Counted from the first letter of the stretch, positions 39,037 through 39,989 are shown. The stretch: DNA of 64,000 bases from Escherichia phage HY01 (NC_027349.1); one strand, 5' to 3'. Made by a program: numbers and translations. Notes: generated by a model not told the origin, from the letters alone.

Positions 39037-39384
39037 TCAATACGGTTTAGCATCAAATTTTCTTTCAATTTCAGGCGTGAAATATAATTCTTTACCACGC
39101 TTGGAAAAGCGACCAATAATATGATAATTATTCTCATCAAACGTGATATTGCCAATATCCATAGCTTTCAACCAAATATCGATATTTCTATCCAGTTTTA
39201 TATCAAAATTCCAATACGGAGAACTATTACCGAAAATACTGCAAGCGGATTCAGTGAAACAACTGCTATAAATCTTGTCTTTAGGAACTACTAATTGATA
39301 GACGCCTTTAATAAACTGAGGACCCTGCCATTTTGGCTGTTTCGCGCCTTTTTCTAATAGAATAGGGTAATAATTAAAGTTCAT
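39037..39384 (-). CDS. Hypothetical protein inserted between frd and td
   Basis: 115-aa ORF with ATG start and no recognisable motif; occupies a junction that is a 4-nt ATGA overlap in T4 as I recall it. Confidence 0.55.
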   Translation of the reverse strand: MNFNYYPILLEKGAKQPKWQGPQFIKGVYQLVVPKDKIYSSCFTESACSIFGNSSPYWNFDIKLDRNIDIWLKAMDIGNITFDENNYHIIGRFSKRGKELYFTPEIERKFDAKPY

Positions 39385-39404
39385 ATTTTCTGCCGCGCGT
39401 TATT

Positions 39405-39989
39405 TCATTTATACACTGATTCCGTAAGGGTTGTTACTTCATCTATTTTATACCAATGACTTTCAACCATTTCACGCTTGCTTATATCATCAAGAAAACT
39501 TGCATCTAATTGAACCGTTGAATTAACACGATGCCTTTTAACGATGCGAGAAACAACTACTTCATTTGCGTAAGGTAGTGCAGCATATAACAGAGCAGGC
39601 CCGCCAATTACGCTGATGCGATTTTCGCTGGAATCGATAAACGTTTCAAAATTTGTATTAGGACTAGATAATTGGATACGTCCACCGGCTACTAAGGTAA
39701 CATACTCATCCCAGGTAATATAAAAATGAGCCAAATCACCATCTTTAGTTTCAGGATAGCCGCGTTTAATATCACACACCACCACATGACTACGACCTGG
39801 AAGTAATGTAGGCAATGACTGAAACGTTTTAGCACCCATAATCATAATTGTGCCTTCAGTGCGAGCTTTAAAATTCTGGAGGTCCTTTTTAACTCGTCCC
39901 CATGGTAAACTATCACCTAAACCGAATGCTAATTCATTAAAGCCTTCAACCGTTTTAGTTGGAGAATAAGCGAATACCAATTTAATCAT
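39405..39989 (-). CDS. frd: Dihydrofolate reductase
   Basis: 194 aa, [32 protein letters not shown]...; conserved position. Confidence 0.9.

Follow-up and report, generated by a model that had tools for sequence, protein, structure and literature searches.

Phage T4 is the reference of its phage group, and the ATGA overlap of its frd and td genes serves as a textbook example of gene overlap. The nucleotide-metabolism cluster of the T-even phages is polymorphic for the presence or absence of I-TevI, mobE and segG insertions, and the 115-aa ORF (X) that lies between frd and td in Escherichia phage HY01 is likewise present in some phages and absent from others. X differs from these insertions in that it has no nuclease domain or fold, is syntenic across genera and is independent of the td intron. 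T4 is further known for deletions between short direct repeats, such as those of the rII type, which X-less junctions resemble in lying between short repeats, with the difference that the deletion of X is one we infer from comparison alone. The closest described counterpart of the HY01 gene is PHROG 1928, or RB32ORF229c, which in T2, T6, RB32, HY01 and AR1 is the same gene at the same frd-td position, flanked by the same 9-bp repeat. Specifically, our results indicate that X is an inherited gene of this gap that T4 most likely lost.

The window, by which we mean the whole 64,000-nt stretch of the HY01 genome (NC_027349.1) analysed here, carries the junction on its minus strand (Table 1). The 601 bases spanning the junction are 100% identical to those of Escherichia phage PEC04 (KR233165, Tequatrovirus hy01), whose PEC04_0169 protein is identical to HY01_0224; comparisons at the junction are named after PEC04, its sequence here being that of the HY01 window. 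We use X for the 115-aa ORF, X2 for a paralogue of X and Y for a 68-aa gap gene. The frd gene, whose product is 86% identical to T4 Frd, ends in GTG TAT AAA TGA, and the ATG that overlaps its stop codon lies in the same frame as X, 24 nt upstream of the X start. All coordinates given in the earlier note for this overlap, for the two-codon ATG AAA TAA frame and for the 115-aa ORF proved correct on re-reading, and the T4 sequence bears out its statement that frd and td share an ATGA there, with no gene in between. It had placed the td start about 400 bp further on; the measured distance from the overlapping ATG to the td ATG is 417 nt, and the two copies of the 9-bp direct repeat TAAATGAAA are likewise 417 bp apart.

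Table 1. Features of the HY01 window around frd and td, and contents of the frd-td gap in other T4-like phages.
Sequence	Feature or gene order	Positions	Strand
HY01	frd (dihydrofolate reductase), 194 aa, C-terminus ...SVYK-TGA	39405..39989	minus
HY01	9-bp direct repeat copy 1, TAAATGAAA: last frd codons, TGA and 2 more bases	39411..39403	minus
HY01	mini-ORF ATG AAA TAA; its ATG (39408..39406) overlaps the frd TGA	39408..39400	minus
HY01	24-nt segment separating frd stop from present X ATG; in T2-type phages, absent from Mosigvirus SF	39385..39408	minus
HY01	X open frame, stop to stop	39040..39399	
HY01	X, 115 aa, ATG start; orthologue of RB32ORF229c / HY01_0224 / PEC04_0169; PHROG 1928	39037..39384	minus
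HY01	~29 nt of X-td spacer, T2-type only, promoter-like element	39004..39032	minus
HY01	9-bp direct repeat copy 2, TAAATGAAA: 3 spacer bases and first two td codons	38994..38986	minus
HY01	td (thymidylate synthase), 286 aa, intron-free	38131..38991	minus
HY01	DUF7247 ORF, 119 aa, frd.1-frd interval	40232..40591	minus
HY01	84-aa ORF, frd.1-frd interval	39993..40247	minus
HY01	nrdA N-part, 477 aa	36140..37573	minus
HY01	free-standing HNH / I-HmuI-NUMOD-like endonuclease gene, 236 aa, between nrdA parts	35384..36094	minus
HY01	nrdA C-part, 329 aa	34405..35394	minus
KpV477 (Jiaodavirus)	frd-X-td (gap gene KpV477_240)		
IME523 (Kanagawavirus)	frd-X-X2-td (gp189, gp190)		
Merlin (Moonvirus)	frd-X-X2-td (260, 259)		
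Cronus (Roskildevirus)	frd-X2-X-td (AWD90398, AWD90399)		
L010 (metagenomic contig)	frd-X-X2-Y(69 aa)-td		
L011 (metagenomic contig)	frd-X-X2, contig end		
JS98 (Dhakavirus; NC_010105)	frd-Y-td; Y of 68 aa, unannotated	~6212..6420 (Y)	minus
SF (Mosigvirus)	frd-X-td	751..1098 of SF record (X)	
RB69 (Mosigvirus)	ATGA overlap like T4, no X		

X is an already catalogued hypothetical phage gene and not a new one. Against the PHROG 1928 profile it scores E = 8.9e-35, with residues 4-111 aligned to profile positions 2-125 of 126, and tblastn recovers it from about 574 phage records, 361 of them with an identity of at least 90% (among these T2, T6, RB9, RB27, RB32, RB68, AR1 and PST) and 213 more at less than 60%; the protein is 97-100% identical to the T2, T6 and RB32 copies. 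The RB32 GenBank entry describes RB32ORF229c as a "hypothetical protein; flanked by 9 bp repeat", the T6 entry cites that name, and the early partial T2 record AY310907 has a 413-nt gap without annotation. Some records of the BASEL collection label X a "putative homing endonuclease", and in one record it is named glucose-1-phosphate adenylyltransferase. As to function, all record sources checked say hypothetical or carry labels of this unsupported kind, our literature search found no paper on X, and scans against Pfam, NCBIfam and PADLOC gave no match. The earlier note held that its reading would fall if related reference phages carried the ORF as a conserved gene with known function; it is conserved in T2, T6 and RB32, but no function is on record.

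When 1.84 billion representative proteins were searched exhaustively with a profile, 22 hits were returned, two of which were repetitive chance matches (P0027 and P0029, rejected as relatives); an earlier word-index protein search had found three relatives only. Because the exhaustive search gave only these 22 hits, the X family is, as far as sequence comparison reaches, small and specific to T4-like phages. Its members, the two repetitive matches aside, are 95-116 aa long, and the family alignment has invariant or nearly invariant residues at Q16, W19, G27, N79, G91, F93, K95, G97 and F102. An apparent fusion, P0013 (195 aa), was set aside, as all it has of X is the final 35 residues of a Jiaodavirus copy and it contains no Pfam domain, and ORFs upstream of frd that were tested as relatives of X (orf228 and orf229 of JS98 and the DUF7247 ORF of PEC04) were unrelated.

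The pattern of substitution marks X as a real, strongly conserved gene. Among PEC04, T2, T6, RB32, PHB12 and JQD51, its dN/dS is 0.01-0.08, with dS up to 0.97 and dN no higher than 0.044, and between Tequatrovirus and Mosigvirus dN is 0.036 for X and 0.128 for td. Across the same two genera, dS of the central X codons is 1.2-1.6 and that of td 1.8-2.4 (saturated), while the first 37 codons of X have a dS of 0.29 and look recently exchanged. That X might be a chance, unexpressed open frame in an intergenic spacer, as the missing annotation in AY310907 and the weak Shine-Dalgarno sequence in PEC04 could be taken to imply, is an idea to which we give next to no credence: the substitution rates speak against it, the frame is intact in hundreds of genomes and recognizable down to 30% identity across genera, and the fold prediction is confident. 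In practice, we regard it as already refuted.

At least seven other T4-like lineages have homologues of X in the same gap, at 30-65% identity and frequently accompanied by a tandem paralogue; these lineages are Jiaodavirus, Kanagawavirus, Roskildevirus, Moonvirus, Mosigvirus and two metagenomic lineages. The comparison of frd-td junctions proposed in the earlier note finds T4 without the gene and the gap filled by the X family in most relatives. The other Tevenvirinae gap genes are homologous to X, of the same size, and share with it Q16, W19, G27, N79 and the conserved motif G91-R-F-x-K-x-G97. They differ from the PEC04 arrangement in that direct start/stop overlaps are usual and two tandem paralogues frequent, whereas PEC04 has one copy between spacers of 20 nt (frd side) and 45 nt (td side). 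The paralogy of X2 with X is indicated by hhalign probabilities of 98.2%, 97.8% and 92.5%, and BFVD pairs the X model with a 144-aa neighbour in Cronus. Identity of X and Td to PEC04 is 62/79% in L010, 45/76% in IME523, 35/75% in KpV477, 35/74% in Cronus and 33/69% in Merlin; because X identity follows Td identity, vertical descent of X seems probable. In JS98, the Y ORF fills a 202-bp gap; its start shares an ATGA with the frd stop, and its own stop shares a TAATG with the td start. It gave no Pfam, NCBIfam or PADLOC match and has 81% identity to the 69-aa ORF that immediately precedes td in L010. Within Mosigvirus, SF (with X) and RB69 (without X) form a presence/absence pair with flanks 96% identical; the frd and td genes of SF are of the RB69 type (96% nucleotide identity to RB69), and its frd and X overlap as ATGA.

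Several further observations concern the neighbourhood. The frd-X-td region is strongly mosaic, as in PHB12, which is classified as a Mosigvirus and has an frd 6% from that of PEC04 and a td 4% from that of RB69, and the frd genes of PEC04 and RB32 differ by 11-14% from those of T2, T4 and T6, mostly in the middle third. In JQD51 (record positions 94..711), the A run at the frd stop is 2 nt longer (TATAAAAATGAAATAG), the usual TGA is gone and frd reads on to overlap the X start by 11 nt; the product names in that record are displaced by one gene. The two ORFs of the frd.1-frd interval (Table 1) are both absent from T4. L010 and L011 share the order DUF5417, then DUF7247, then small ORFs, and since this DUF7247-type order recurs there, T4 looks reduced on that side of frd as well. 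Finally, nrdA, which is intact in T4, is split in HY01, with an endonuclease gene between its two parts, an arrangement that we take to resemble the mobE-split nrdA of Aeromonas phage Aeh1.

We put at about 0.8 the probability that T4 lost X by a small deletion, and that HY01/PEC04 did not gain it. Removal in silico of one TAAATGAAA copy plus the 408 bp between the copies yields exactly the junction of T4, and 153 of the 160 flanking bases are identical; the junctions of T4 and RB69 are those that a precise excision between direct repeats of 9 bp and 8 bp would leave, and the presence/absence pairs in both flank backgrounds are bounded by TAAATGAA(A). The T4-type junction occurs in 32 records (about half of them T4 itself) and the RB69-type in 15. 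The frd genes of T4, HY03, e11/2, SG1, G28, JEP6 and G2133 are 3-6% from those of the X-bearing T2, T6, PST and N2, and the T4-type phages differ among themselves by as much. X also adjoins a 14%-divergent frd allele in PEC04, RB32, PHB12 and JQD51. Because the frd genes of X-less phages are thus no further from those of X-bearing ones than from each other, the X-less junctions are shallow, and a loss is favoured because they are both shallow and rare. It is favoured, too, because X stands in native flanks in both genera, with a central dS close to that of td. Further, as the X family fills the gap in other lineages, the comparison suggests that the T4 frd/td overlap is a minority, derived state that arose from a small deletion. 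Since the region is heavily mosaic, local trees are weak evidence here, and this reading rests on comparisons rather than on a whole-genome phylogeny.

The opposite direction, which the earlier note had favoured, is that the ATGA overlap is ancestral and that a 417-bp segment carrying X entered it, with a duplication of 9 bp, so that ATG AAA TAA would be what is left of the former td start. This we consider improbable, although parts of the evidence fit it. The repeat by itself fits a deletion and a target-duplicating insertion equally: the 9-bp duplication expected of an inserted element is present, and it would serve as a deletion substrate just as well. Five of its nine bases, the TAA that precedes the td ATG and the AA that follows the frd TGA, are not dictated by coding; this speaks mildly for a real footprint, and a target duplication would explain these bases. 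The RB32 annotators had flagged the repeat, the overlapped junction is common to T4 and RB69, and cassette exchange does occur here, since in PHB12 the frd and X are Tequatrovirus-like and the td is that of a Mosigvirus. The shared junction also counts against a deletion, which would need either two parallel events or one old polymorphism. Against an insertion, however, the only ORF in the segment is the 115-aa protein, so that it contains no transposase, recombinase or homing endonuclease, and no terminal inverted repeats were found by reading; every outgroup lineage sampled has X, X2 or Y in the gap; and X lies in native Mosigvirus flanks at near-saturated synonymous divergence from the Tequatrovirus copy. 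The same gene would, moreover, have had to enter the same nucleotide in two genera, and the two-genus presence/absence pair is more easily explained by recurrent slippage than by two such precise insertions. The rarity and shallowness of X-less junctions and the small ATG, which is in frame with X and is the X start codon in SF, fit an insertion poorly as well. What stands of the earlier proposal is the extra 115-aa gene and the displacement of td relative to T4; the direction is most likely reversed.

Under the deletion that we prefer, an old array of small genes (X, X2 and Y) would have lain between frd and td in the T-even-type ancestor; that JS98 keeps Y means that this ancestor must have had a multi-gene gap. 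Its members would then have been kept differently, X in PEC04, T2 and T6, Y in JS98 and none in T4 and RB69. The T4 ATGA overlap would have been created by loss of the 417 bp between the TAAATGAAA repeats, through replication slippage or recombination at microhomology, and an equivalent loss would have happened separately in Mosigvirus. The account as a whole, in which X is a vertically inherited accessory gene of an old gap array, lost in T4 and RB69, and has a role of the kind discussed below, seems to us somewhat better than an even bet; that T4 and RB69 grow well without X was counted against it.

The small ATG AAA TAA frame more probably dates from a coupling of frd with X than from the td start, of which the earlier note took it to be a vestige, because the frd stop overlaps the X start as ATGA in Mosigvirus SF, L010 and Merlin. 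T2-type phages have 24 in-frame extra nucleotides between the overlapping ATG and the present X ATG, and this segment carries a weak Shine-Dalgarno-like GGCAGA (GGCGGA in T2 and T6). The RNA of the frd-X spacer is less structured than shuffled controls (z = +1.9), which suits a translation start region. On the other side of X, the spacer to td is 13-15 nt in PHB12, JQD51 and SF and 45 nt in T2-type phages including PEC04, where the additional stretch has GCTTCA followed by TATAAT/TAATTT, a combination that we take to resemble a MotA-dependent middle promoter (MotA box). A promoter scan of this spacer returned TTGATT-18-TATTAT, and we regard the element as a putative promoter. T4-type phages are known to carry PeSL, repeated promoter-plus-hairpin cassettes that flank a variable gene. 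The X spacers were rejected as such a cassette: the element occurs a single time in the window, and the folds of the spacers are not significantly stable (z = -1.8 and +1.9). An Rfam scan of 38000..40300 gave one sub-threshold hit only, to Yar_1, a Drosophila lncRNA, inside X (39282..39353, plus strand), and at 26.9 bits against a gathering threshold of 50 it was dismissed as chance.

Homing endonucleases are abundant nearby, with I-TevI in the td of relatives and the HNH gene that splits nrdA here, and X is labelled a putative homing endonuclease in the BASEL phages AugustSocin, KarlGJung, AdolfPortmann and AlbertHofmann; it also contains a local GVY...IYS string. That it is a homing endonuclease, whether degenerate or novel, or the remnant of a mobile element, is nonetheless very hard to credit. 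Pfam gives no GIY-YIG or HNH match even at E = 0.1, and G27 is the one residue of the "GIY" that is invariant among 28 family members, with neither the "YIG" half nor the catalytic residues conserved and no conserved His/Asn/His pattern in the alignment. The protein is predicted to be a 115-aa beta-barrel with no DNA-binding tail, unlike the alpha/beta nuclease fold and separate DNA-binding domain of GIY-YIG enzymes, no nuclease appears among its structural hits, and it is stably syntenic rather than sporadic. The earlier note's statement that the product resembles neither HNH nor GIY-YIG enzymes is thus sustained by the Pfam and AlphaFold results, and the profile searches and structure prediction it proposed end in no Pfam match and a confident beta-barrel model. 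Nor is the absence of X linked exclusively to the td intron. T4 and all six of the other T4-type-junction phages checked carry the intron, and it occurs together with X in T6, PST, RB9, IME340 and others. Among the classical phages, T6 has both X and intron, T2 only X and T4 only the intron. Together with I-TevI, this intron turns up in some 197 phage records, with an identity of 99.7-99.8%.

The AlphaFold2 model of X, built on a 28-sequence alignment, reached a pLDDT of 91.9 and a pTM of 0.85, with elements E6-12, E27-34, E62-64, H68-76, E80-82, E86-96 and E99-104 (b-b-b-helix-b-b). On this model, X would be a small beta-barrel that includes one helix. The protein is mildly basic, with a pI of 8.8, and most family members are basic (pI 8-9). 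Structural comparison gave little: the best Foldseek E-value against PDB was 0.26, a profile search of PDB sequences returned chance hits only (E ~0.06), and a BFVD structure search returned only uncharacterised T4-like phage proteins. The weak structural hits, in two lists, were mostly OB-folds (HIN, Teb1, RPA, Stn1/Ten1, SSB and S1), and the order of strands and helix in the model fits an OB barrel, which is only a resemblance. From its position, X may be expressed along with Frd and Td from the early/middle transcript of nucleotide metabolism, and from its modelled fold it may bind nucleic acid or a partner protein of the DNA-precursor or replication machinery, a function that would be useful in nature and dispensable in the laboratory.

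We therefore propose, tentatively, that X is a small binding module in DNA-precursor synthesis or replication that is co-made with Frd and Td. About equally likely, in our view, is that it is a counter-defence or host-takeover protein, which might for instance inhibit an immune or nuclease system of the host or act as its decoy; the earlier note had suggested anti-defence cargo. X is a small protein without enzyme motif, it sits amid small early genes of no assigned function, it has tandem paralogues and a patchy loss in T4, RB69 and JS98, and phages without it stay viable; a factor that helps on wild hosts but is not needed on laboratory strains would explain the repeated loss. Very strong purifying selection with no diversifying change is, however, less in keeping with such a factor, as is the stable position in at least seven lineages beside nucleotide-metabolism genes, often with translational coupling. 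X is also mildly basic, not an acidic DNA mimic, and our literature search found no paper tying it to any defence system. A PADLOC scan of X gave no match, the PADLOC models being of defence and not of counter-defence. A broader statement, to which we give slightly less weight than to either of these, is that X founds a beta-barrel family without detectable solved relative and acts either as a constrained DNA-precursor/replication partner or as a counter-defence factor.

For the T4-like phages, the junction taken as the model would, by this comparison, be the exception: the gap gene is present in most relatives and appears to be held by selection as tightly as thymidylate synthase. The record labels "putative homing endonuclease" and "glucose-1-phosphate adenylyltransferase" are corrected by these results, and the locus probably exemplifies repeated loss at a single site of microhomology. 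In practical terms the gain is modest, X being a candidate for a clean knock-out in T2 or T6. If the broader statement above is true, sixty years of genetics would have missed this gene only because the model phage, T4, had deleted it.
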